Shown here: piece after piece, positions 1,771 through 56,052 of the stretch
Numbering within the stretch: the first letter of the stretch is position 1
How the letters are laid out: each line of letters starts with the position of its first letter
Origin: an uncultured Chloroflexia bacterium
Lineage (GTDB): Bacteria; Chloroflexota; Chloroflexia; Thermomicrobiales; CFX8
Assembly (NCBI GenBank): GCA_963763325.1
Contig: CAVXOL010000022.1
Location: 16,737-80,736 of the forward strand
Length of the DNA stretch: 64,000 nt
Direction of reading: 5' to 3'
Notes under the pieces: generated by a model
What the model saw: only the letters and a program-made list of their open reading frames with translations
Databases searched by the model: none
Told to the model about the DNA's origin: nothing
Translations under genes and position numbers: made by a program

Positions 1771-3424
<1,654 letters not shown>

Positions 3425-3477
3425 GCGCGAAGATTGACACCTGTTGCGGAGGTCCATCGAACCCTACGGGAATCTAA

Positions 3478-6278
<2,801 letters not shown>

Positions 6279-6364
6279 GACGGCGTCGAACGGGCGGCCC
6301 TGCCAGGAGGGACCACGTCGATCCACCGATTCCTAATCTCCGTTTTGTTGGACAGTGCCTACGA

Positions 6365-8759
6365 TCAGTAGCCGTGTCGCGCCGCAGGGCGTCTGTCAAG
6401 GCCGTTGGAGCCGACACCATGGCGGCAGGCTTCGCGACCTGGGGGTGGCGAGACAGGTGGCCGGGCCGGCAGGGGTGGGTAGGAACACGTCTGCGGCGAA
6501 TCGAGCGCAATCGTGATCGGCTCGCCGTGGTGGAGCAGATCGAGCGGCTCGCCGGATAGCAGTTCGTAGCGAGCGTGGTCGCTGTTAACATCGACATGCA
6601 GGCGGCGGTCGCGATACATCAGTCGGAAGGACAGGCCGGTAAGCGTCTCAGGCAGGCGCGGAGAAAATGCCAGGGTCTCGCCATAGTCGCGCAGACCGCC
6701 GAACCCGGCGACCGCAACCAGCCAGGCACCTGCCAGCGAGGCGAGGTGGAGGCCGTCGGATGTGTTGCCGGCCAGATCGTGCAGATCGACGAAGGCGGTC
6801 TCACGGAAGTATCCGTAGGCCAGATCGAGATGCCCGACTTCGGCGGCAACGATGGCCTGGATCGCGGCTGAGAGCGTCGAGTCTCGAACGGTGATCGCCT
6901 CGTAGTACTCGAAGTCGCGTGCCTTCTGCTCCGGCGTCGAAGTGGTCGCCGCAGAGATAGAGGGCGAGGACGAGGTCGGCCTGCTTGATGACCTGGCTTG
7001 AATAAAGCAGGTAGTACGGATAGTTCAGCAGCAGCGGATATTCCTCGTCGCCGGTCGCGCTGAAGTCCCAGGGCCGATAGCGCGTGAACCCTTCCGACTG
7101 GGCCGTCACGCCAATCTCATGGTCGAACGGCACGACCATCGCGCTGGCCGCCTTCAGCCAACTCGTGACCTCACGCTGATCGACGTGGACCTCAGCGGCG
7201 CGATCCGGATAGCGAGTCACGACATCAGCGGCGACGCGCAGGTTCCGCGCCGCCATCAGATTGGTGAAGACGTTATTGTCAACCAGCGCGGTGTATTCGT
7301 CCGGTCCGGTGACGCCGTCGATACGAAAGCACCCTTCCGCATCGTGGTGACCGACCGCCAGCCAGAGACGTGCCGTTTCAACCAGCAGCTCAAGACCGGG
7401 ACCGCGCTCGAACTCGGTGTCGCCGGTTGCGGCGACGTAGCGGCGGACGGCGTCGGCGATGTCGGCGTTGATGTGGAGCGAGGCCGTGCCGGCCGGCCAG
7501 TAGCCCGAGCACTCGTCGCCGCGTATCGTCCGCCACGGAAAGGTTGCCCCGGCCAGGCGCAGTTCGCGCGCCCGTGCACGAGCCAGGTCGAGCGTCGAGT
7601 GTCGCCAGCAGAGCGCATCGCGGGCCGCTTTGGGAGCGGTGTAGGTCAACACCGGCAATGTGTAGGTTTCGGTGTCCCAGAACGAATGACCGTCGTAGCC
7701 GCGGCCGGTGAGCCCCTTGGCGGGAATCGCGCGTTGCTCCGCCCGTGCGCCTGCCTGAATGACCTGGAAGAGCGCGTATCGCACGGCTTGCTGGAGCTCA
7801 TCATCGCCGCCGACAACGACATCGGCACGGTCCCAGATGTCATCGAGGTACTCACGTTGCCCGGAGAGGAGCCCGTCCCATCCGACGCGTTTCGCTGCTG
7901 AAAGCGCAGCATCGACCTGATCGCGCAGGGCCGGCATCGAACGCTCGCTCGACCAGCCGTAGGCCAGCAGCTTGATGACCGTCAGCTTCTGACCCGGCGC
8001 CAGTTCGGTGCTGATCGTGACACGCGCCAGGTCCTGCTCACTCTCCGACTCGGTGACCGTCCCCGCCGGTCCGTCGATCAGGTGGTCGATTCCGGCAGCC
8101 ATCCGGAGCCCACTGCTGCGGGTGTGGTGGCCGAGTGCCGCGCTGAGCTCGTTGTGAGTGTGATACTCGCTCACCAGTGGAGCACGGAGCGCGGCGGCGG
8201 CGCGTGGATCACCCTCGTTCTCCGGTAGCGGTTCGTTGGTGACCAGCGACGACTGGAGAACGATTCGGGCGGGCTCGTCGACCGCCTCGACCTCGTAGTA
8301 GATGGCTGCCACCGCGCGCTGGACGAACGAGACCAGCCGCGTCGAGCGAATGCGGACCGCCTTCCCGGCCGGCGATACCCATTCCACCTCGCGCCGCAGG
8401 ACGCCATCGCGCAGGTCGAGCACGCGCTCGTGGCGCACGAGCGTCCCATAGCGCACGTCGAACGGTTCGTCGTCGACCAGCAGCCGCATGAGCTTGCCGT
8501 TGGTCACGTCGATCAGCGACTGCCCCTCTTCGGGGTAGCCGTAGCCGCCCTCCGCGTATGGCAGCGGTAGCGTTTCGAAGAACCCGTTCAGGTACGATCC
8601 GGGAGTGTCGTGTGGCTCGCCTTCGTCGAGGTTGCCACGCAGCCCGATGTGTCCATTGGAGAGCGCGAAGATCGACTCTGTCTCGGCCAGCAAATCAAGT
8701 CGCAGGTTGGGTTCGGTGACGGACCACGGCTCGACCTTGAACACGCCTGGATCGATCAT
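6365..8759 (-). pseudogene. Glycoside hydrolase family 65 disaccharide phosphorylase (kojibiose/trehalose/maltose phosphorylase type); single 1-nt frameshift near 6937
   Basis: The 652-aa ORF 6801..8759 has the GH65 architecture. After 'LYLCGDHF' the natural continuation 'TPEQKARDFEYYEAITVRDSTLSAAIQAI...' lies in another frame, which runs on into ORF 6365..6619 ('MYRDRRLHVDVNSDHARYEL'). The start overlaps the pgmB stop by 4 nt. Confidence 0.8.
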
Positions 8760-16581: not shown

Positions 16582-16669
16582 TCCCTGCCGTTCTCTGCTC
16601 TTCTTGACGACAACGCCACAGCGTGACAGACTAGCCCATGCGCTGGGCAACCGGCGTGACAACCCAGAA

Positions 16670-16875
16670 TCCGGCAGCGGGTACTCGTCTTTGGGCGAGG
16701 TCACAGGGGGAAACCGGTGCGAGACCGGTGCTGTGCCGCAACTGTAACGCGCGTCGTGCGCGGAGCCAGGTCACCTGCCGTTGCCGTTCCGGTTCGCTTC
16801 GAGCACGAGTGAGCTGGGATGGTCAGGAAACCGACCTCCCTCTCTCACCCGCTCGAAGGCGGGTTTTTGTTTTGT
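16670..16875 (+). promoter_or_regulatory. Cobalamin (B12) riboswitch with terminator-type expression platform
   Basis: Core matches the cobalamin riboswitch consensus: 'GGTCACAGGGGGAAACCGGTGCGAGACCGGTGCTGTGCCGCAACTGTAAC'. The B12 box is 'GGAGCCAGGTCACCTGCC'. It is followed by hairpin CCCGC-TCGAAG-GCGGG (16848-16863) plus 'TTTTTGTTTTGT'. Confidence 0.8.
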
Positions 16876-20439: not shown

Positions 20440-22106
20440 CCGCCGTCGTCGCCGATCGGTTGTCGTATCGCTTCCCGAAGGCGACGGTTGATGCGCTGCG
20501 CGAGGTGTCGTGGGCCGTCGAGGACGGATCGGTGACGCTCGTGACCGGACCGTCGGGTTCCGGCAAGACGACGCTGTTGCGCTGCCTGAACGGGCTGATC
20601 CCGCACTTTCACGGGGGGATGTTCGGCGGCGATGTCTCGGTCCTCGGCGTCAACACGCGCGCGGCCGGGCCGCGTGATCTGGCGCGTGAGGTCGGGATGG
20701 TCTTCCAGGACCCGGAGGCGCAGTTCGTCACCGACCGGGTTGAGGACGAAATCGTCTTCGGGATGGAGAACCTCGGCTACGACCGCCGGACGATGCGAGT
20801 CCGGCTCGAAGAGACGCTCGATCTGCTCGGCATCAACCATCTGCGGCAGCGTGAGGTCGCAACCCTCTCCGGCGGTGAGCGGCAGCGGGTGGCGATCGCT
20901 GCCGCATTGGCGACCCGCCCTGCTGTGCTTGTCCTCGACGAACCGACCTCGCAGCTCGACCCGCTGGCGGCCCACGATGTTCTGGCCGCCGCACAGCGTC
21001 TCAACAGCGACCTGGGGATGACGATCGTTATCAGCGAGCACCGGCTCGACCGCGTCCTGCCCTTCGCCGACCGGCTGGTCGCGATTGACTCGGGTTCGTT
21101 CTATGAGGGTCCCGTTCAGGATGTCCTGTCACTGATGGACGATGTGCCGCCGCTGGTTGAGCTGGCGCGGGTTCTTGGCTGGGAGCCGGTTCCATTGACG
21201 GTGCGGGAGGCACGGCGCAAACCCCTCCCCAACCGCCACCCAGAGGGTACCCGGCCTGCGAAGGGAGGGGCTTTAGATTCCGTGCGGCGAAAAGCCCCTC
21301 CCTTCGCAGGCCGGGTACCCTCTGGGTGGCGGTTGGGGAGGGGCTTCTCGAACGCGCCCGGAAACGCCCTCCTCACCTTTGACGCCGTCACCTTCCGCTA
21401 CGACCGCACCACCGCGCTACGCGACATCACGCTCACCGGTCATGCCGGCGAAGTCATCGCATTGATCGGCCGCAACGGCTCCGGAAAGACGACGTTGCTC
21501 AAGCATGTCAACGGTTTGCTGCGCCCGAGTGGCGGGCGAGTGTTGCATGAGGGAATCAATATCGCACGGACGCCCGTCCACGAGGCGGCGCGGACTGCCG
21601 GGTACGTGCCGCAGCATCCGACCTCGATTCTCCATCAGGAGACGGTGCGCGATGAGTTGCGCTTCACGCTCCGGGCGCAAGGGAAAGAGATCACGCCGGG
21701 GCCGTTGCTGGAGCAACTCGGCCTGCTGCATCGGATAGACCGGCACCCGCTGGACCTGAGTGGCGGCGAGCGCCAGAGGTTGGCCCTGGCAGCGATCGCG
21801 ATTGGTGAACCGCATATCCTGCTGCTCGACGAGCCGACACGCGGTCTGCCCGGTAATGATAAGCGGACGCTGGCCACGTTCGTGCGCGAGTACGCTGCTA
21901 AGGGCCGGCTCGTCGTCGTCGCCACCCACGATGTTGAGTTCGTCGCCAACGCTGCCGACCGCGTCATCATGCTCGCCGAGGGGGAGATCGTTGCCGACGG
22001 GACTCCCGCCGAGGTCCTGGCCGGCTCGCTTACCTTCGGTACCCAGATGAACCGGCTGTTTGGTGGCGACGTGCTGACGGTCGAGGATGCGATAGTGAGG
22101 AGATAG
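20436..22106 (+). CDS. ecfA: Fused duplicated ECF/CbiO-type ABC ATPase (EcfA1-EcfA2)
   Basis: Two ABC cassettes. First: Walker A 'GPSGSGKTTLL', signature 'LSGGERQRVAIA', 'VLVLDEPTSQLD'. Second: 'GRNGSGKTTLL', 'LSGGERQRLALA', 'ILLLDEPTRGL'. ATGA overlap with ecfT. The inter-domain linker contains the palindromic insert. Confidence 0.9.
   Translation: MTAVVADRLSYRFPKATVDALREVSWAVEDGSVTLVTGPSGSGKTTLLRCLNGLIPHFHGGMFGGDVSVLGVNTRAAGPRDLAREVGMVFQDPEAQFVTDRVEDEIVFGMENLGYDRRTMRVRLEETLDLLGINHLRQREVATLSGGERQRVAIAAALATRPAVLVLDEPTSQLDPLAAHDVLAAAQRLNSDLGMTIVISEHRLDRVLPFADRLVAIDSGSFYEGPVQDVLSLMDDVPPLVELARVLGWEPVPLTVREARRKPLPNRHPEGTRPAKGGALDSVRRKAPPFAGRVPSGWRLGRGFSNAPGNALLTFDAVTFRYDRTTALRDITLTGHAGEVIALIGRNGSGKTTLLKHVNGLLRPSGGRVLHEGINIARTPVHEAARTAGYVPQHPTSILHQETVRDELRFTLRAQGKEITPGPLLEQLGLLHRIDRHPLDLSGGERQRLALAAIAIGEPHILLLDEPTRGLPGNDKRTLATFVREYAAKGRLVVVATHDVEFVANAADRVIMLAEGEIVADGTPAEVLAGSLTFGTQMNRLFGGDVLTVEDAIVRR
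21222..21343. repeat. Perfect 50-bp inverted repeat (22-nt spacer) of the C4TC4/G4AG4 nested-palindrome family, read in frame inside ecfA
   Basis: Checked base by base. Left arm 21222-21271 is 'cccctccccaaccgccacccagagggtacccggcctgcgaagggaggggc' and equals the reverse complement of right arm 21294-21343. It encodes 'KPLPNRHPEGTRPAKGGALDSVRRKAPPFAGRVPSGWRLGRG'. Confidence 0.9.
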
Positions 22107-22183
22107 TGCTGAGTGCTAAGGCGAGAGGAGTGGTTGACGCGATCGGTCACTAACTCCTTTCGCCTTAGCACTCAGCATTTTTC
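22107..22183 (+). terminator. Intrinsic terminator of the B12/ECF operon (25-bp stem, T-run)
   Basis: Stem 22107-22131 'tgctgagtgctaaggcgagaggagt' pairs with 22153-22177 with one G-U pair. It is followed by 'tttttc' and starts 1 nt after the ecfA stop. Confidence 0.75.
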
Positions 22184-22341: not shown

Positions 22342-24906
22342 ATGCCCCGACGCTCCAAGACGGCACCTGAGAACAGTGACGCGCTAACCGATGCCGAGGA
22401 CCTGGGCGATGCCTATGTCGCCGCGCCGGAGCGGGTCAAGCCGGACGACGAATCGACCTACCTGACGCTGCCGACGCTGATCCTGCCGCAGACGTTGTTG
22501 CTGCCGCGGATGTCGCTGCCCTACCCGCTCGATGACGAGGAAGAGACCCAGGCAGTTGATGACGCCATTAAGCACGATCGGCTGATCCTTGTTCTGGCCG
22601 CCAGGGACCAGGACGAAGATGACGATGACCTCGATGACGACGAGGAGGATGAGGACGCCGACAGCGTTTCTCTCGATGAGTCGCGTGCCGGTGTCGTGAC
22701 GAGCTACGGGTCACTGGTCGCCGATGACGAGCTCTGCACGGTTGGCGTGATCGCTGAGGTTGGCCACAAGATTACACGGCCCGGTGGGCCGGCCCATGTC
22801 ATCCTCCAGGGTGTCGCCCGTGGTGTTGTCAAGGAGATCGAGCAGCGCCGGCCGTTCACGCTGGCGAAGGTCAAGCGGATCGATGACGCGAACGTTGAGA
22901 CGCTTGAGGCGAAGGCGGTCATGTCGCACGTCCTTGAGCAGGTCGAGTCGTACATCGCGATGCTGCCGAACGTGCCGGAAGAAGTCGTCACGATGGTGCG
23001 CAGCGTCGATGAGCCGGGCTGGCTGGCCGACCTGATCGCCTTCTCGCCCGAGTTCGAGTCGGCCAAGAGGCAGGAGGCCCTGGAGAGCTCGATCCGGTCG
23101 AGCGGTTGCGCCACATCTCCGTCATCCTCCAGGAGCGGCTGGAGTATCTGACGCTGCGGCACCAGATCCAGTCGGAGGCACAAGCCGGGCTGGACCGCCA
23201 GCAGCGTGAATACCTGCTGCGTGAGCAGATGCGCACGATCCAGCGCGAGCTGGGCGATGTGGCCGCGCGAAGAGGCGCTCGTCCAGGAGTTCCGCGACAA
23301 AATCGAAGCGGCCGGGATGCCGGATGAGGTCAAGACCAAGGCGCTCCTCCAGGTCTCACCGGCTGGAGCACCAGCACCCGTTCTCCCCGGAGATCGGCGT
23401 GATCCGTTCCTACCTGGAATGGCTGACCGAGCTGCCGTGGTCGATCGAGACTGAGGATAAGCTCGATCTCGAGGAGGCTGCGAGGATCCTTGATGAGGAC
23501 CACTACGGTCTGCCGAGAAGGTCAAGGAGCGTATCCTCGAGTTCATCGCTGTCCGCAAGCTTGCCGGCAATCGGATGAAGGCGCCGATCATCTGCTTCGT
23601 CGGCCCGCCCGGCGTCGGCAAGACCAGCCTGGGCCGCTCGATTGCCCGTGCGCTGGGCCGCTCCTACGTGCGAATGTCGCTCGGTGGTGTCCGCGACGAA
23701 GCCGAGATGCGTGGCCATCGGCGCACCTACGTCGGCGCGATGCCGGGCCGCGTCATCAAGGCGCTGCGAGACGCGAAGACGCAGAACCCGGTCATGGTGC
23801 TGGACGAAGTCGACAAGGTCGGCTCGGATGCGTTCCGTGGCGACCCATCATCGGCGCTGCTGGAAGTGCTCGACCCCGAGCAGAACCATTCGTTCTCTGA
23901 CCACTACCTGGAGGTTCCGTTCGACCTGTCACAGGTGATCTTCATCACGACCGCTAACCTGCTCGACCCGATCCCGGCGCCGCTGCGAGACCGGATGGAG
24001 ATCATCGAGGTTTCCGGCTACACCGAGGTCGAGAAGCTGGAGATCGCCCGCAAGTTCCTGTTGCCGAAGGCGCTCTACTCGCACGGCCTGGAAGAATCGC
24101 AACTGATCATGCCGGACGAGGCGCTGCTGCGGCTGATCCGTGAGTACACGCACGAGTCGGGCGTGCGCAATCTCGATCGAGAGGTTGGCGCGCTCTGCCG
24201 CAAGGTGGCGCGACGGGTGGCCGAGGACGCCGGAGCGCGAGAGCTGGCTGGTCGATGCGCGAGGATCTGCCGTCGTTCCTGGGTATCCCGCGCTTCGAGT
24301 TCGGGCTGGCCGAGGAGAACGACGAAATCGGCGTCGCGACTGGCGCCGCCGTCACGAGTGCTGGGGGCGACCTGCTCTCGGTCGAAGACGACGGTGATGG
24401 CCGGGAAGTCGGAACTGACGCTGACGGGCCAGCTCGGTGATGTCATGCAGGAGTCGGCGCGGGCCGCGATCTCCTACGCGCGCTCACGCTCGCAGGAGCT
24501 TGGCATCCCGGTCGGCTTCTTTGACAGCCACACGATCCACATCCATGTTCCGGCCGGTGCGATCCCGAAGGATGGCCCCTCGGCCGGCGTGACGCTGGCG
24601 ACCTCGCTCATCTCGGCCGTGACCGGCAACAAGGTCCGCAAGGATGTCGCGATGACGGGCGAGGTGACATTGCGTGGCAAGGTGCTACCGATCGGAGGCA
24701 CCCGCGAGAAGGCGCTGGCTGCCCACCGCGGCGGGATCACGACCTTCATCATCCCGAAGCGCAACGAGAAGGACCTCGACGACCTGCCCGCCACCGTCCG
24801 CGATGAGCTCGATATCCACCTCGTCTCGCACATGGACGAGGTGCTGGCGATCGCGTTCGTGGCTGCTCCACGCGCCGTCAAGGAGCTGGCCGCCGTCGGC
24901 GACTGA
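22342..24906 (+). pseudogene. lon: ATP-dependent Lon protease, multiply frameshifted as assembled
   Basis: N-domain 'LPTLILPQTLLLPRMSLPYPL'. Coiled region '[39 protein letters not shown]'. '[19 protein letters not shown]'. Walker A 'FVGPPGVGKTSLGRSIA'. 'HRRTYVGAMPGRVI'. Protease 'LTGQLGDVMQESARAA' and 'PKDGPSAGVTLATSLISA'. At least 6 frame changes, including a compensating pair at about 24240 and 24395. Confidence 0.9.
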
Positions 24907-25031
24907 GTCGACAGCCGTCAGCCGTCAGTGATCAGCCTGTTGGTCGAATGCCAGTATTCTCTCCACGGGTCAGGCGCTCAGCCTCCTGAGCCTGGCTGAT
25001 TACTGGTGACTGACGGCTGACGGCTGTCGAC
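24907..25031. repeat. Long inverted repeat/hairpin directly after the lon stop (23-bp perfect outer stem plus extension)
   Basis: Checked: 24907-24929 'gtcgacagccgtcagccgtcagt' is the reverse complement of 25009-25031. An extra pairing 'atcagcc/ggctgat' extends it. The arms contain tandem 'cagccgt'. Confidence 0.8.
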
Positions 25032-25098
25032 TCCTTGCTATACTCCGATGGCCGGACATACCCGCCGGGCCGTAACCACAGCCATCCAGGAGGACACC

Positions 25099-28094: not shown

Positions 28095-28505
28095 ATGCCG
28101 GCTCCTCGTTGGTTAGCGCGCTCGAACCGCTATGTCCTGAATCCGATCCTCGGACGGCTCGCACGGCACCTGCCCGGCTTCGGCGTCGTCATTCACACCG
28201 GCCGGAAGTCGGGCCGGACCTATCGAACGCCGGTCAACATCTTCACTCGCGACGGCGGCTATGTCGTCGCGCTGACCTACGGGCGCGAGTCGGAGTGGGT
28301 GCGGAACGTTCTCGCCAGCAGAGGTTGTCGGCTGGAGACGCGTGGACGCTCGCTGCAACTAATCGAGCCGCGACTCGTCCACGACGAAGACCGTCGCGCT
28401 GTTCCGGCTCCAGTTGGGTTCGTCCTTGGTCTGTTGCGGGTGAAGGATTTCCTTGAACTCAATCGGGAAGACAATTCTGCAGGTTCGTCGTCACCATCCG
28501 CGTAG
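28095..28505 (+). CDS. Deazaflavin (F420)-dependent nitroreductase-family oxidoreductase (DUF385)
   Basis: SD 'aggagg' upstream. 'NRYVLNPILGRLARHLPGFGVVIHTGRKSGRTYRTPVNIFTRDGGYVVALTYGRESEWVRNV' is typical of the family. Confidence 0.75.
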   Translation: MPAPRWLARSNRYVLNPILGRLARHLPGFGVVIHTGRKSGRTYRTPVNIFTRDGGYVVALTYGRESEWVRNVLASRGCRLETRGRSLQLIEPRLVHDEDRRAVPAPVGFVLGLLRVKDFLELNREDNSAGSSSPSA

Positions 28506-28563
28506 GGACAAGTCTCAGACATGTCCGCGCCGTGAGGCGGCCACGCGGATGGTGACGACGAAC
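28483..28563. repeat. Composite hairpin: degenerate REP-like palindrome (28501-28532) nested in an outer 20-bp inverted repeat
   Basis: 'cgtagggacaagtctcagacatgtccgcgccg' resembles the REP family found at 54.4-56.0 kb. The outer arms are 'gttcgtcgtcaccatccgcg' (28483-28502) and 'cgcggatggtgacgacgaac' (28544-28563). Confidence 0.6.
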
Positions 28564-28722: not shown

Positions 28723-28762
28723 CTTTTCGGTGCGACCGTTCCGCCAGATGAGAGGTACCGCA

Positions 28763-29830
28763 GTGAGCGAACGCGACAAGGCTATCGAGGTCGCTCTGGC
28801 GACGATCGAGCGTCAGTTCGGCAAGGGCTCGATCATGAAGATGAGCGAGTCGACCCGGCTGCCAATCGAGGGGATCCCGACCGGCTCGATCGCGCTGGAC
28901 ATGGCGCTCGGCATCGGCGGTGTCCCGCGCGGCCGGATCATCGAGATCTATGGCCCGGAGTCGTCCGGTAAGACGACGCTGGCCCAGCACATCATCGCCG
29001 AGGCGCAGAAGATGGGCGGCGTGGCCGCCTACATCGATGCCGAGCACGCGCTCGACCCGCTCTACGCCGAGCGGTGCGGCGTCAACCTCGACAACCTGCT
29101 CATCTCGCAGCCGGACACCGGCGAGCAGGCGCTGGAGATCACCGAGACGCTGGTCCGCTCCGGCGCGATCGACATCATCGTGGTCGACTCGGTCGCCGCG
29201 CTCGTGCCGCGCGCCGAGATCGAAGGCGACATGGGCGACTCGCACGTCGGCCTCCAGGCGCGACTGATGAGCCAGGCGCTGCGCAAGCTGACCGGCGCGA
29301 TCTCCCGCTCGCGGACCTCGGTCATCTTCATCAACCAGCTCCGGATGAAGATCGGCGTCATGTTCGGCAGCCCGGAGACGACGACCGGCGGCCAGGCGCT
29401 CAAGTTCTACTCCTCGGTGCGGATGGACATCCGCCGGATCGAGACGATCAAGCAGGGCACCGACTCGATCGGCAGCCGCGTCCGCGTCAAGGTCGTCAAG
29501 AACAAGGTCGCGCCGCCGTTCCGCCAGGCCGAGTTCGACATCATGTACAACGAGGGCATCTCGAAGGCCGGCAGCGTCCTCGATGTCGGCGTCGAGCTGG
29601 GCATCGTCCGCAAGAGCGGCGCCTGGTTCTACCTCGAAGAGGACCGGCTCGGCCAGGGGCGTGAGAACGCCAAGGAGTTCCTCAACAACAACCCCGACAT
29701 CCTGAACACGATCGAGTACCGCATCCGCGCGACCTCGCCGGAGTTCGCCGGCCACGACGCGCCGCAGGACGAGGTGCTGGCGATGGCCGGCGCCACCAAC
29801 GGCCTGATCGAGGACGACGAGATCGTCTAA
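28763..29830 (+). CDS. recA: Recombinase RecA
   Basis: '[24 protein letters not shown]', Walker A '[11 protein letters not shown]', '[11 protein letters not shown]', '[22 protein letters not shown]', '[22 protein letters not shown]'. Start taken at GTG 28763 after SD 'gagagg'. ATG 28748 or GTG 28730 are alternatives. Confidence 0.95.
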
Positions 29831-29888: not shown

Positions 29889-29935
29889 TGTCATCAATGT
29901 GGTGGCTGCCTCGTCGAGATGCGAGCAGTCGAAAA

Positions 29936-29998
29936 CCCCTCCCCAACCGCTCCCCTGCGAAGGGAAGGGCTTTTCGCAGGGGAGCGGTTGGGGAGGGG
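29936..29998. repeat. C4TC4/G4AG4 nested-palindrome family copy (26-bp perfect arms, 11-nt spacer)
   Basis: Checked: 'cccctccccaaccgctcccctgcgaa' (29936-29961) is the reverse complement of 29973-29998. Confidence 0.85.
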
Positions 29999-30002
29999 TT
30001 TC

Positions 30003-30765
30003 TTACACCTCGATCGTTTCGCCATCTCCTGGAACGAGCACTCGCTCGCTCAAACCCAGCATCTGCGACAGCCTGCGACAGCATCTCGCGCGTTAGCAGG
30101 CAGTGGTTGATCGTGTCCATGTGGACGGCGATGATCTTCGCGTTCGGGGCTGCTTCGGCGACGCGGATGACCTCGTCGGCTGTCATCGTGATCGGGTCAC
30201 CCTTCAGGAACTGGGCCGCGCCAGCGTTAAGGACGATCACGTCAGGCGTGTGCGCGTTCAGGGCTGCTTCGACCTCCGGACACCAGACGGTGTCACCCGC
30301 AATATAGAGGGTCGGCTCGCTGGACGCGCGGAAGACGAAGCCGGAGACGTGGCCCATCAGCGCACCGATCTCGCCGGTGCCGTGCTGGCCACCGGTGCGG
30401 GTGACCTCGAAGCCATGCCAGCGTTCTCTCTCGTCAATTGTGATCAGGTTGCTGTAGCCCTCGGCGGTGAGCTTGTCGACGTCCGGCGGCTGGCAGACCA
30501 TCGGTGTCTCGTGCGGGATCAACTCACCCGCGCGGGCGTCCCAGTGGTCGCGGTGTGTGTGCGTCACGAAGACGCCATCGACGCTGGCGATGAGCTGCTG
30601 GAGCTCGTCGTCATCGATCGGCAGGGGCAGCATCGGGATGCGATGGGTGTTGGCTGCGTTACCGATCGGGTCCAGGGACTCCTTCTCGGCCAACATCGGG
30701 ATCGACCAGGATACTGATGTCGCCCCAGTCAACGACGATCGTCGCATGGCGCAGCAATCGAATCT
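30003..30765 (-). pseudogene. MBL-fold metallo-hydrolase, frameshifted near both ends as assembled
   Basis: Core 'VFVTHTHRDHWD' is the HxHxDH-type motif. The N-terminus 'VKIRLLRHATIVVDWGDISILVDP' is in another frame (shift near 30700). The natural C-terminus 'VLVPGDGETIEV*' (stop 30003-30005) is reached only after a shift near 30040; otherwise the ORF reads through into the palindromic repeat. Confidence 0.7.
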
Positions 30766-32626: not shown

Positions 32627-32664
32627 ACGAGGAGACGGACGTGCCGCATCTGGTAGGGGCCACA

Positions 32665-32799
32665 TCCTGTACCGGCCCATGCCGTGAGGCATCCTCGGTG
32701 GGACATGGTGCGTTTGGCGAGAATCATCAACGTCTGCGCCCGTTTGGGAACCATGCCATCGTCTTACAACGATGCCTCACGGCATGGGCCGGTACAGGA
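32665..32799. repeat. 29-bp perfect inverted repeat with 77-nt spacer between pcaC and pcaB
   Basis: Checked: 'tcctgtaccggcccatgccgtgaggcatc' (32665-32693) is the reverse complement of 32771-32799. The spacer has its own smaller inverted repeat ('catggt...accatg'). Confidence 0.85.
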
Positions 32800-32844
32800 C
32801 ACGGCCACTACGTGGGTGTCGGCCAATATGGTCCGGTGTCTGAC

Positions 32845-41761: not shown

Positions 41762-41804
41762 CGGCCTGCGGGCCGCGGACCGGTCTGAGACCGGTCCCTA
41801 CGAG
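41762..41804. repeat. REP-like palindromic element (same family as 54.4-56.0 kb)
   Basis: 'cggcctgcgggccgcggaccggtctgagaccggtccctacgag' shares the head 'cggcctgcgggccgcggac', the palindromic core and the 'ccctacgag' tail with the copy at 54545-54592. Confidence 0.8.
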
Positions 41805-48873: not shown

Positions 48874-48976
48874 AAACCCCGACCGCCCAGCCCCCTCCCC
48901 TGAAAGGGAGGGGGGCTTGGCCGTAGCGTTGCTCACGCCCCCTCCCTGTAGGGGAGGGGGCTGGGGGGTGGGGTTA
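48874..48976. repeat. C4TC4/G4AG4 nested-palindrome family copy between hisH and hisA
   Basis: Two internal hairpins ('gccccctccc-ctgaaa-gggaggggggc' and 'gccccctccc-tgta-ggggagggggc') sit inside imperfect outer arms 'aaccccgaccgcccagcccc' and 'ggggctggggggtggggtt'. Confidence 0.75.
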
Positions 48977-49658: not shown

Positions 49659-49774
49659 GGAGGTTCAGCCGTCCAATGGTTCGCTGTCACGCGGCGACCG
49701 TGTACGGAGGTAATTGAATCAGGTTTTGGGCTGGGATGTCTCAATCGATCCTTCTTGCGATTTCGTGTGTCGCA

Positions 49775-49869
49775 AACCCCTCCCCACCCCCCCCTGCGAG
49801 GAGAGGGGCTTTGCGCCGCACGACGTCTGATAGCCCCTTCCTTCTCAGGGGAGGGGTTGGGGAGGGGTC
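49775..49869. repeat. C4TC4/G4AG4 nested-palindrome family copy (imperfect arms) between hisH and the deacetylase gene
   Basis: 'aaacccctccccacccccccctgcgaggagaggggcttt' against 'tagccccttccttctcaggggaggggttggggaggggtct'. Confidence 0.75.
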
Positions 49870-49886
49870 TGCGACACATCAAATGT

Positions 49887-54395: not shown

Positions 54396-54423
54396 ATTCA
54401 ATGTGGTTGCCCTGAGCCGCAAC

Positions 54424-54592
54424 CTCGTAGGGACCGATCTAAGATCGGTCCGCGGCCCGCAGGCCGAGGTGCGACACGGTCCGCGTGACATCGAAGAAGA
54501 TGCGCAACGCCTGCGCCCGTGGTCGGGTGCCGAGCATGTGTCGAACCTTCGGCCTGCGGGCCGCGGACCGATCTTAGATCGGTCCCTACGAG
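54424..54592. repeat. REPIN-like doublet: two inverted 47/48-nt REP units separated by ~75 nt
   Basis: 'ctcgtagggaccgatctaagatcggtccgcggcccgcaggccgaggt' (54424-54470) is the reverse complement of 54545-54592, apart from one extra T in the latter. Each unit holds the palindrome GGACCGATCT-N-AGATCGGTCC. Confidence 0.85.
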
Positions 54593-54662
54593 ATGGTTTC
54601 AAGTCCTCGCTCCAGGTATTGATACTCGCTGAATCCTCGCCCGGTTACTCGTTGGATTGTCG

Positions 54663-55140
54663 CTATCGTACTGCCAGTTGCTCTGGATTCGCCTCGATGT
54701 ACCCTCGTACTCGTTCGAGATCTCGGTCATCGCGGATGATGTGATCGTAAAACGACCGCTGCCACACGGAGGCGCCAGGCGTCCCGCGCAATTCGTTGAT
54801 GCGTCGTGTCGAGAACGACTTCAACACCCGTATGATCTCGGAGAGGTCATAGTCTGGTTTCTCGTTGCATCTCCTTCCGAAGAAGGAAGAGAATTCCGTG
54901 AACGTGATTTGGCATGATGACAAATGCGTCCAGTTCAACGAGTGGGTAGTGCTGCGGCAGTGCGTTCCAGCACTCGTCAACAGCCTCGCCAAAGGCGCTT
55001 TGGTTCATCACGCCATCGACGACATCTCCCAGGAGAAAGGCACCATCTCGCGTGCGGATCGTAAAAAAGTACGATCCTGGAGTCGAGTAGTCGTAACCCT
55101 CTGCGCGTGGTGATGAACGTCGCGTAATTTTCTCTACCAT
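54663..55140 (-). mobile_element. REP-associated tyrosine transposase (RAYT; IS200/Y1_Tnp family), frameshifted near 54870
   Basis: ORF 54847..55140: 'GYDYSTPGSYFFTIRTRDG...LDAFVIMPNHVHGILFL', with the HUH motif HVH. ORF 54663..54992: 'IIRVLKSFSTRRINELRG...SVWQRSFYDHIIRDDRDLERVRGYIEANP', with the catalytic Tyr region. REP units in opposite orientation flank it on both sides. Confidence 0.85.
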
Positions 55141-55176
55141 CGTCGTCTCATTGGCGAGGAAGCGTCCTCAGAATCC

Positions 55177-55203
55177 CGTAGGGACAGGTCTGAGACCTGT
55201 CCG
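55177..55203. repeat. REP palindrome (left bracket of the G/A-rich segment; upstream flank of the RAYT gene)
   Basis: 'cgtagggacaggtctgagacctgtccg'. Confidence 0.8.
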
Positions 55204-55240
55204 AGGGTGAAAACAAGCTTGGGGAGAGTACGTGGTGTGA

Positions 55241-55830
55241 AGGACGCAGAAGGAGGAGAGGAGAAGGAGGGGGGGAGGGAGTGGGGAGGAGGGGGGAGAG
55301 GAGGAGGGAGAGGAGGGAGAGGGGGGGGAGAGGAGGGGGGGGGAGGGGAGGGGGGAGGGGGGAGAAGGAGGGAAAAGGGGGGCGCGGGAGGAGGAGGGAG
55401 GAAGGGAGCGCGGAAAGGAAGAAGGAGGAGAGGAAGGAGGGGGGGGAGGGGAGGCGGGGGGGAGCTGAGGGGGAGGGGGGGGGGGAAGGAGCGGGGAGAG
55501 GGGGGAGCAGGGGAGGGGGGGGAGGGGCGCGGCCGCGGCTGGCGACCGTCGGGAGGGGAGGGACGCGAACGAGACGCAGAGGAGGAGCGGTGGGCAGGCC
55601 CGTGCGTGGAGCAGGGAGACCACGTGGTACGTCGTTCGTGGGCTCGGAACGCCTGCGCCCGGTTTCGGGAGCGCTCCTGGAGGTGCCGAGACGGCGCGAG
55701 GCGCGCGGGACGCGGCCGCAGGCGGGGGGGGGGGGGGGGGGGGGAGGCGGGAGGGGGGGGGGGGGGAGGGGCGGAGCGGGTGAGCGGAGCGCGGGGTAGC
55801 GGACGGGGGGCGGGTGCGGCGGGGGACGGC
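55241..55830 (+). repeat. Strand-pure polypurine (G>>A) low-complexity tract with very long G runs
   Basis: On the + strand, 55241-55527 is almost only G/A with a handful of C/T. A second block at 55720-55830 contains G21 (55724-55744) and G14 (55753-55766). G9 and G11 runs occur at about 55335 and 55475. Confidence 0.9.
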
Positions 55831-56001
55831 CGGAGTTGGTAAGCTGGCGCAGGTCGTGCGTGCCAGTCATGGGGTGCACAGTTTGACCGCGCCAGCGCAC
55901 GTGGTACGCGTGCTCACCACCGTGCAACGCTGCCTGACATCAGGGACCCGGATGAATCGCCGCAGCACCATCCAATACCTATCAAGTCCTCCTCGATCCG
56001 C

Positions 56002-56038
56002 GCGGGCCGCGGACAGGTCTCAGACCTGTCCCTACGAG
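56002..56038. repeat. REP palindrome (right bracket; immediately downstream of the tsaD stop)
   Basis: 'gcgggccgcggacaggtctcagacctgtccctacgag', inverted relative to 55177-55203. Confidence 0.8.
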
Positions 56039-56052
56039 GTTGGGGCGAAGCG

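Follow-up and report, generated by a model that had tools for sequence, protein, structure and literature searches.

The window analysed here is a 64-kb stretch (64,000 nt) of contig CAVXOL010000022.1 from an uncultured Chloroflexia bacterium. Between an inositol-monophosphatase gene (IMPase, start 54398) and tsaD (stop 56053) it carries an insert of 1654 nt (54399-56052), made up of a gene for a REP-associated tyrosine transposase (RAYT, or TnpA_REP) that we treat as a pseudogene and of repetitive extragenic palindromes (REPs) around it. Read in the sense of the RAYT, the order is GTAG-hairpin (56035-56011), hairpin-CTAC (55202-55178), RAYT, GTAG-hairpin (54589-54565) and hairpin-CTAC (54451-54427), so that four of the six REP copies in the window bracket the gene in inverted orientations. 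A first-pass annotation, made from the letters alone, had described a RAYT flanked by inverted copies of one palindrome, and GTAG-type REPs do lie on both sides. The insert contains no open reading frame (ORF) of the size of tnpB.

The host is not a proteobacterium, as had been guessed earlier. RecA (28730-29830) is 100% identical to protein P0121 of a 362-kb contig and 93-96% identical to proteins named Thermomicrobiales, and relatives of TsaD at 90-94% identity include the Thermomicrobiales metagenome-assembled genome (MAG) JTS-RE48. These identities place the host as an uncultured member of Thermomicrobiales (Chloroflexota).

The RAYT pseudogene (54599-55140, minus strand) occupies three reading frames separated by two +1 frameshifts. 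The first segment (55140-54871) is the N-terminal part with the HUH motif HVH. The second (54875-54684) carries the GTAG-recognition motif WQRSFYDHIIR and the catalytic tyrosine in RGYIEANP, and the third (54679-54602) is the C-terminal tail beginning GNWQYDSDNP, with the stop codon at 54599-54601. Alignment with homologues traces the shifts to two 1-nt insertions, one near 54871-54875 that separates the HUH motif from the remaining protein and one near 54680-54684, just past YIEANP. The first-pass annotation had seen the former, placed near 54870, and missed the latter. Internal stops are absent from all three segments, every catalytic and recognition motif is kept, and neither frameshift site is a homopolymer. 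After the first frameshift the HUH motif and the tyrosine are in different frames, and this copy would therefore be unable to cleave and rejoin DNA. We treat the gene as a true pseudogene, with a small share of doubt kept for sequencing error, because long ORFs (200 aa or more) take up 79% of the window, the neighbouring tsaD, rimI, IMPase and recA genes are full length, and the frameshifts lie outside homopolymers. Programmed frameshifting was set aside, as it would require two separate +1 events without a known slippery context; we know of no precedent for it in the RAYT family.

The reconstructed protein of 179 aa scores 73.8-74.4 bits with the NCBIfam model REP_Tyr_transpos (NF047646; curated cutoff 80) and 26 bits with the IS200 model (cutoff 55), and the RAYT ORF scores 34 bits with Pfam Y1_Tnp. 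The translated gene matches both the Y1_Tnp and the REP_Tyr_transpos profiles, in keeping with the Y1/HUH transposase of RAYT type that had been proposed from the HVH motif. Three intact relatives (P0001, P0004 and P0036) reach 67-75 bits on NF047646, which makes the sub-cutoff score a property of the clade rather than a sign of decay. Automatic annotation probably labels members of this clade just "transposase" or "IS200-like".

The sole match in the PDB is E. coli TnpA_REP (4ER8; E = 0.005 with the single sequence, 1e-5 with a homologue profile), and the HUH, WQ..EH..R and Y-I-x-NP motifs are all aligned between the two proteins. The catalytic tyrosine is the Y of RGYIEANP, aligned to VDYIYINP of E. 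coli TnpA_REP, a placement that also agrees with the alignment in Additional file 5 of Di Nocera et al. (PMC3733652). FYDHIIR, which the first-pass annotation had labelled the tyrosine region, instead forms part of the W-Q-x4-(E/D)-H-x2-R region that reads the GTAG foot in E. coli TnpA_REP (PMC6006769).

No second copy or paralogue of the RAYT occurs within the 64-kb window. The gene has a GC content of 53.9% versus 64.7% for the window, and a GC content at third codon positions (GC3) of 57-69% versus 81-95% for the host genes tsaD, IMPase and recA. Its closest relative, P0001, shares 75% identity and sits in a different gene context.

REP hairpins and REPINs

A scan of the window with the pattern GGACNGGTCTNAGACCNGTCCCTACG, allowing up to three mismatches, returned six matches (starting at 28501, 41777, 54426, 54565, 55177 and 56011) versus 0.00 expected from 100 shuffles. 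A density of six per 64 kb against none expected is consistent with a high copy number. The scan recovered every single copy noted earlier, namely the upstream unit at 55177-55203, the dispersed copies at 56002-56038 and 41762-41804, and the degenerate one near 28501. The copies are real, but the unit is a composite rather than the one palindrome first described: a GTAG foot is followed by a 10-bp hairpin with a 1-nt loop and then, on the side opposite the foot, by a small GC hairpin (GCGGCCCGCAGGCCG) that is present in most copies. After correction for strand, all six copies show GTAG and the immediate 10-bp stem with its 1-nt loop (GTAG-GGACNNNTCT-N-AGANNNGTCC), and their stems start with GGAC. 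The stem occurs in three variants (CGG/CCG, CGA/TCG and AGG/CCT) that differ by compensatory changes. The candidate REP substrate hairpin can be written as GTAG-GGACCGATCTAAGATCGGTCC. Folded as single-stranded DNA, the REP units reach -9 to -17 kcal/mol.

The six copies are spread over 28 kb as singles and doublets. All are intergenic, with co-oriented flanking genes, and three lie 0-17 nt past a stop codon. The slightly degenerate unit at 28502-28541 (plus strand) has one mismatch in the stem and a variant of the small hairpin (GCGCCGTGAGGCGGC); its foot provides the TAG stop codon of an upstream F420H2-quinone-reductase-like gene, and recA follows downstream. A dispersed copy at 41762-41804 (minus strand) reads small hairpin, main hairpin and CTAC on the plus strand, and the genes on either side of it, bPH_2 and GNAT, are both plus-strand genes. 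Upstream of the RAYT start, at a distance of 37 nt, stands a single hairpin (GTAGGGACAGGTCTGAGACCTGTCC; 55178-55202, plus strand) that lacks the small GC hairpin. The unit at 56002-56038 has its GTAG on the minus strand (hairpin 56011-56035), shares the stem variant of the 55178 copy, includes a partial small hairpin and lies 17 nt past the tsaD stop.

A terminator scan of the window found no T-tail at any REP hairpin, and we rejected intrinsic termination as their role on that ground. An Rfam search of the window returned no known RNA family at the REPs, and the hairpin sequence, searched in the literature, matched nothing but unrelated primers and barcodes.

Downstream of the RAYT, a head-to-head REP doublet with its GTAG feet outside (a REPIN, here REPIN-B; 54424-54592) lies 6 nt past the RAYT stop and 26 nt upstream of the IMPase start. 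Its arms had been reported as reverse-complementary apart from one extra T (54424-54470/54545-54592). The complementarity holds, and no extra T was seen: the arms at 54424-54467 and 54549-54592 match at 100% over 44 nt around an 81-nt spacer. As single-stranded DNA, REPIN-B would form one long hairpin (-86 kcal/mol, z = -14). The spacer holds a conserved core, AACGCCTGCGCCCG, at 54506. On the minus strand, which is also that of the neighbouring genes, the spacer core at 54502-54516 folds into a small hairpin (GCGCAGGCGTTGCGC) with a T-rich tail behind it and was flagged by the terminator scan.

A second inverted REP pair, REPIN-A (55178-55202/56011-56035), has an interior of about 800 nt rather than about 80 nt. 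Its stem variant is that of the elements at two sister-genome loci described below (L189 and L190), and its arms match the L190 REPIN at 97%. Inside lies a G/A-rich low-complexity tract of about 600 nt (55220-55830, plus strand) arranged in two blocks, at about 55230-55540 and 55700-55830. A second copy of the 14-nt core AACGCCTGCGCCCG lies between the blocks, near the middle of the interior (55648-55661). The exact 14-mer has two sites only in the window, this one and the REPIN-B spacer (blastn-short E = 6e-4), and local alignment of the REPIN-B spacer with the REPIN-A interior was not significant (score 31 versus a shuffled maximum of 33). The link between interior and spacer is thus suggestive only. 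Runs of G reach 21 nt in the tract, which holds 96 of the 104 plus-strand motifs of G-quadruplex (G4) type in the window. Nothing similar occurs at the orthologous site in relatives, and a comparable purine/pyrimidine stretch was seen at 2 of 106 REP loci among the matches listed from the wider scan that follows. The tract could be genuine, as an expanded REPIN spacer, or it could be an artefact that arose in assembly or basecalling at a strong hairpin.

The hairpin is widely distributed. A scan taking one genome per species returned at least 106 loci. Among the matches listed, to which all counts in this paragraph refer, the motif occurs in more than 10 phyla, with loci in Chloroflexia, Anaerolineales, Thermomicrobiales, Ktedonobacteraceae, Caldilineaceae, Leptospiraceae, Terriglobia, Opitutae, Omnitrophota, Lentisphaerae, Planctomycetaceae, Gemmatimonadales and others. 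A RAYT-like ORF lies nearby at 4 of the 106 loci and none at the other 102, which indicates that the hairpin disperses independently of the gene. The variable stem triplets are fully complementary in 123 of 148 motif matches versus about 60 expected with shuffled partners, and nine distinct paired stem variants occur. A GTAG foot is present on both sides in 72 of the 148 (these figures count each double-foot site once per strand).

We also ran a generic search for GT[AG]G with a hairpin after it on metagenomic RAYT relatives (n = 80, 35-52% identity). Such a hairpin lies within 400 nt of the RAYT gene or inside it in 73 of the 80 relatives, versus 3-6 in shuffled controls, and inside it in 63. 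The relatives' stems start with GGGC or GGAC. In many homologues the hairpin is read as protein, as a GxGL[KR]PxPT linker between the HUH motif and the tyrosine. This in-frame REP insert is absent from the window RAYT and from P0001 and present in L093, a locus from an AT-rich genome. There the hairpin appears in frame as VGTGLRPVPTG (at 470-2551 and 3018-3674), with one copy in a DNA methyltransferase-like ORF of 693 aa and two in the RAYT homologue. Named RAYT homologues come from Chloroflexota, Bacteroidota, Brocadia, KSB1 and Bacillota. A search of a plasmid collection with the REPIN, aimed at the second chromosome of Thermomicrobium roseum, gave a chance-level match in Chelatococcus only and none in that replicon, which the collection may not include.

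The tsaD-IMPase junction in sister genomes

The sister genomes share the gene order tsaE-tsaB-rimI-tsaD-IMPase and differ in what lies at its last junction. In JTS-RE48 (locus L188) tsaD and IMPase overlap by 8 nt, with nothing inserted (L188 7139-7146). L187 shows the same 8-nt overlap between tsaD and the called IMPase, with a different palindrome, of the CCCCTCCCC type, after the tsaD stop. L189 carries one double-foot REP, GTAG-hairpin-CTAC (7164-7192), and L190 a full REPIN (6148-6303) at exactly the site of the L189 REP. The window has the 1654-nt insert with a REP, the 800-nt interior, a second REP, the RAYT pseudogene and REPIN-B. The RAYT is absent from the orthologous junction in all four sister loci.

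The comparison of L189 with L190 captures a change of form. The two encode an identical TsaD protein, and their flanks are 99.9-100% identical over about 2.1 kb, with a 127-nt indel difference between them. The REPIN arms are also 21-nt direct repeats, because each hairpin is itself palindromic, and a deletion between the two arms would give exactly the L189 form. Quentin et al. suggested such a deletion between REPIN hairpins as the origin of double-foot REPs (PMC6006769). The L189/L190 difference is direct evidence that the REPIN and double-foot forms interconvert by deletion (or duplication) between hairpins.

The architecture and the spacer core of REPIN-B also occur in L190 and at the JTS-RE48 loci L055 and L010, and the JTS-RE48 copies occupy sites that are non-orthologous to the window REPIN. 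REPs and REPINs of the GTAG family have thus been gained or lost recently in this clade. The first-pass annotation had proposed an orphaned, decaying population. Identical arms, a REPIN type shared with JTS-RE48 at non-orthologous sites and a junction that is empty, REP-bearing or REPIN-bearing among relatives argue against this and for a family that has been dynamic recently, even though the RAYT copy here appears dead.

Since tsaD adjoins or overlaps IMPase in the sister genomes, we read the REP-RAYT-REPIN block as a lineage-specific insertion. It was probably acquired horizontally, the low GC content of the RAYT suggesting an outside origin. The insertion may also have consequences for its neighbours. 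The 8-nt overlap called in L187 and L188 suggests that tsaD and IMPase are translationally coupled there. In the window IMPase starts at a different ATG (MNTSYHHELT), 1.65 kb from tsaD, and because of this separation and altered start its expression may be changed.

A REPtron reading, its alternatives and other repeats

We conclude, with a probability of roughly 0.88, that the region is a REPtron, that is, a RAYT/TnpA_REP gene of subclass 2.4 (RAYT group 4) together with GTAG-footed REPs and REPINs of the kind that these enzymes recognise. The anatomy of the sequence, the family assignment, the dispersal of the hairpins, the insertion polymorphism and the base composition are all seen directly in the DNA. 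The cleavage mechanism would follow that of E. coli TnpA_REP: the RAYT would bind the folded REP hairpin in single-stranded DNA, read the 5' GTAG foot through its W-Q...(E/D)-H...R motif, and cut and rejoin the strand with the HUH metal site and one tyrosine. By the same analogy its activity would scatter REPs and REPINs into intergenic spaces. As to the direction of transfer, we infer that the block REP-spacer-REP-RAYT-REPIN came from outside and entered between tsaD and the IMPase gene as one. The RAYT copy would later have been disabled by the two 1-nt insertions, the first splitting the HUH motif from the tyrosine, and the window REPs would now be immobile unless another RAYT acts in trans.

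Several points weigh against this conclusion. REP binding and cleavage by this clade stand by analogy. The RAYT score is under the 80-bit NCBIfam cutoff and, with its intact relatives at 67-75 bits, the whole clade falls short. Enrichment of REPs in the source genome is counted over the 64-kb window only. The odd purine tract adjoining the RAYT raises the possibility of a local assembly problem, which could also explain the frameshifts.

This last point leads to the view that the frameshifts are sequencing or assembly errors and that the actual genome has an intact, active RAYT. The 600-nt G/A tract does resemble a possible artefact, the motifs are all kept and the three segments are free of stops, and the RAYT of another long-read MAG (L079) also looks frameshifted. 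Two indels within 540 nt, neither at a homopolymer, nonetheless far exceed the error rate implied by a window with long ORFs over 79% of its length and full-length tsaD, rimI, IMPase and recA, and we regard this as unlikely, though worth bearing in mind. Less likely again is that the hairpins are mainly structural or RNA elements that serve the host, such as mRNA 3' stabilisers or protein-binding sites under selection, with RAYT proximity secondary. Their position between co-oriented genes, in three cases right after a stop codon, and their stable folds would suit such a role, as would the report that REPs lie mostly downstream of coding regions (PMC3733652). They lack the T-tails of intrinsic terminators, however, and they are present or absent at one junction from one close relative to the next, strains with 99.9% identical flanks included, which resembles mobile DNA. 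The tight association of hairpin and RAYT over 80 loci, with hairpins even inside the gene, favours a cognate pair of enzyme and substrate. A host role and a mobile role are not mutually exclusive.

An autonomous insertion sequence of the IS200/IS605 type, with a TnpA and subterminal hairpins, would share the Y1/HUH fold and the Pfam Y1_Tnp match, and it would account for the insertion polymorphism against sister genomes and for the foreign GC content. We consider it very improbable, given 26 bits with the IS200 model against 74 bits with the REP transposase model, the lack of tnpB and of a second gene copy in 64 kb, GTAG-footed hairpins without a nearby transposase at 102 of the 106 loci among the matches listed, and relatives that bear the REP hallmarks of subclass 2.4.

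Within the REPtron reading, we speculate that the locus captures the recent horizontal arrival of a RAYT in a lineage where a matching REP/REPIN population was already resident. The RAYT is low in GC and missing from the orthologous site in the four sister loci, yet sister genomes carry the same REPINs elsewhere and, at the tsaD-IMPase junction, without any RAYT; we hold this more specific scenario to be a long shot. If it were true, then together with a GTAG-GG(A/G)C hairpin that hardly varies across more than 10 phyla it would mean that members of the clade have a recognition code in common. A RAYT entering a genome could adopt the REPs already there and set them moving again, REPINs would be landing pads for whole REPtrons, and replication slippage at a REPIN cruciform could have produced the G/A tract as a real feature.

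The window contains other repeats. A second, unrelated family of palindromic doublets is built on CCCCTCCCC/GGGGAGGGG (for example AAACCCCTCCCCAACC...GGGAGGGGCTTT), with copies at 21219-21346, 29909-30012, 48878-48973 and 49760-49884 and at about 3417-3460 of L187. It appears to be mobile as well, since the L187 copy occupies the tsaD-IMPase junction. Another GTAG-footed inverted doublet (32653-32811) has the body GTAGGGGCCACATCCTGTACCGGCCC followed by a small hairpin ATGCCGTGAGGCAT, with 41-nt arms that are 90% complementary around a 77-nt spacer; it may represent a second REP family whose own RAYT would lie elsewhere. Further inverted repeats lie at 24905-25033 (31-nt arms, 94% complementary, 67-nt spacer) and 22107-22177 (32-nt arms, 88% complementary, 7-nt spacer). 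A cobalamin riboswitch (Rfam RF00174, 53.5 bits) is encoded at 16662-16795 on the plus strand.

Comparison with known systems

The first-pass annotation had pointed to a canonical REP/RAYT arrangement in a non-proteobacterial genome. The arrangement is real, but it is not new, since it is published for Chloroflexi (PMC3733652) and for the multi-phylum group 4/subclass 2.4 (PMC5581495, PMC6006769). The locus adds little beyond Di Nocera 2013, Bertels 2017 and Quentin 2018: it is a known kind of system in a new host from an under-studied order. Its value is that of a clean comparative case, in which one conserved junction (tsaE-tsaB-rimI-tsaD/IMPase) shows five states among close relatives, namely empty, unrelated palindrome, double-foot REP, full REPIN and full REPtron. 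The sequences give direct support for three points that published work mostly infers: that REPINs turn over on short timescales outside Proteobacteria, that deletion between the hairpins of a REPIN can leave a double-foot REP (or the reverse), and that a RAYT and its REPs can appear as a single insertion. It also exposes an annotation issue, as a whole RAYT clade scores just below the NCBIfam cutoff for REP-associated transposases.

In the E. coli REPtron (TnpA_REP/YafM with its REP/BIME elements; Ton-Hoang 2012, Messing 2012, PDB 4ER8), too, inverted REP pairs flank a single transposase gene, the hairpin has a 5' GTAG foot, and the catalytic and recognition residues are conserved. The proteins are distant (about 25% identity over 87 residues, E = 0.005 with the single sequence), the hosts belong to different phyla, and the window hairpin is a perfect 10-bp stem with a 1-nt loop whereas the E. 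coli stem is bulged. TnpA of IS200/IS605 belongs to the same protein superfamily and recognises hairpins in single-stranded DNA. The window RAYT differs in its far lower score with the IS200 model, the lack of tnpB, its occurrence as a single gene in the window, and hairpins that spread independently of the gene.

Closer in host range are the GTAG-tagged REPs that Di Nocera et al. 2013 catalogued in eight phyla including Chloroflexi (PMC3733652). Their GTAG-23 family, from Thermomicrobium roseum and Roseiflexus castenholzii, is tied to GC palindromes of the form CCGSSCC(n3-4)GGSSCGG, and its intragenic copies encode AGLRPAP (PMC3733652). Going by their description, the two families share GTAG-footed REPs in Chloroflexi, with one host of GTAG-23 in Thermomicrobiales, and small GC palindromes (CCGSSCC(n3-4)GGSSCGG in T. 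roseum, CGGCC-TGCG-GGCCG in the window). AGLRPAP corresponds to the peptide signature of the window hairpin, G-x-G-L-R-P-x-P-T. The R. castenholzii RAYT fragment in Additional file 5 of Di Nocera et al. (PMC3733652) and the window RAYT share WQRNYHEHIIRDD...NPARW. The copies in T. roseum mostly gather into large blocks at a small number of loci, whereas those of the window are singles and doublets spread over 28 kb.

The closest counterpart is RAYT group 4, defined by Bertels et al. 2017 (PMC5581495) and frequent in Cyanobacteria, Chlorobia and Caldilineae; Quentin et al. 2018 equate it with TnpA_REP subclass 2.4 (PMC6006769). That subclass has long canonical REPs and double-foot GTAG...CTAC REPs and a patchy distribution resembling horizontal gene transfer (PMC6006769); in-frame REP insertions in the gene are predominant in it, not universal (PMC6006769, PMC5581495). 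The window RAYT would belong here by features shared among its homologues rather than by placement in a tree. Both are Y1/HUH proteins with the W-Q...(D/E)-H...R motif for GTAG recognition, paired with long GTAG REPs that have a G-rich stem base and that take double-foot forms, here in L189 and at many other loci. The relatives of the window RAYT carry in-frame REP inserts between the HUH motif and the tyrosine, and they too are patchy across many phyla including Chloroflexi (Caldilineae in the case of group 4). Unlike the typical member, the window RAYT lacks the internal REP insert, as does its closest relative P0001, and is a putative pseudogene with two frameshifts, and the window REPs bear an extra small GC hairpin opposite the GTAG foot.

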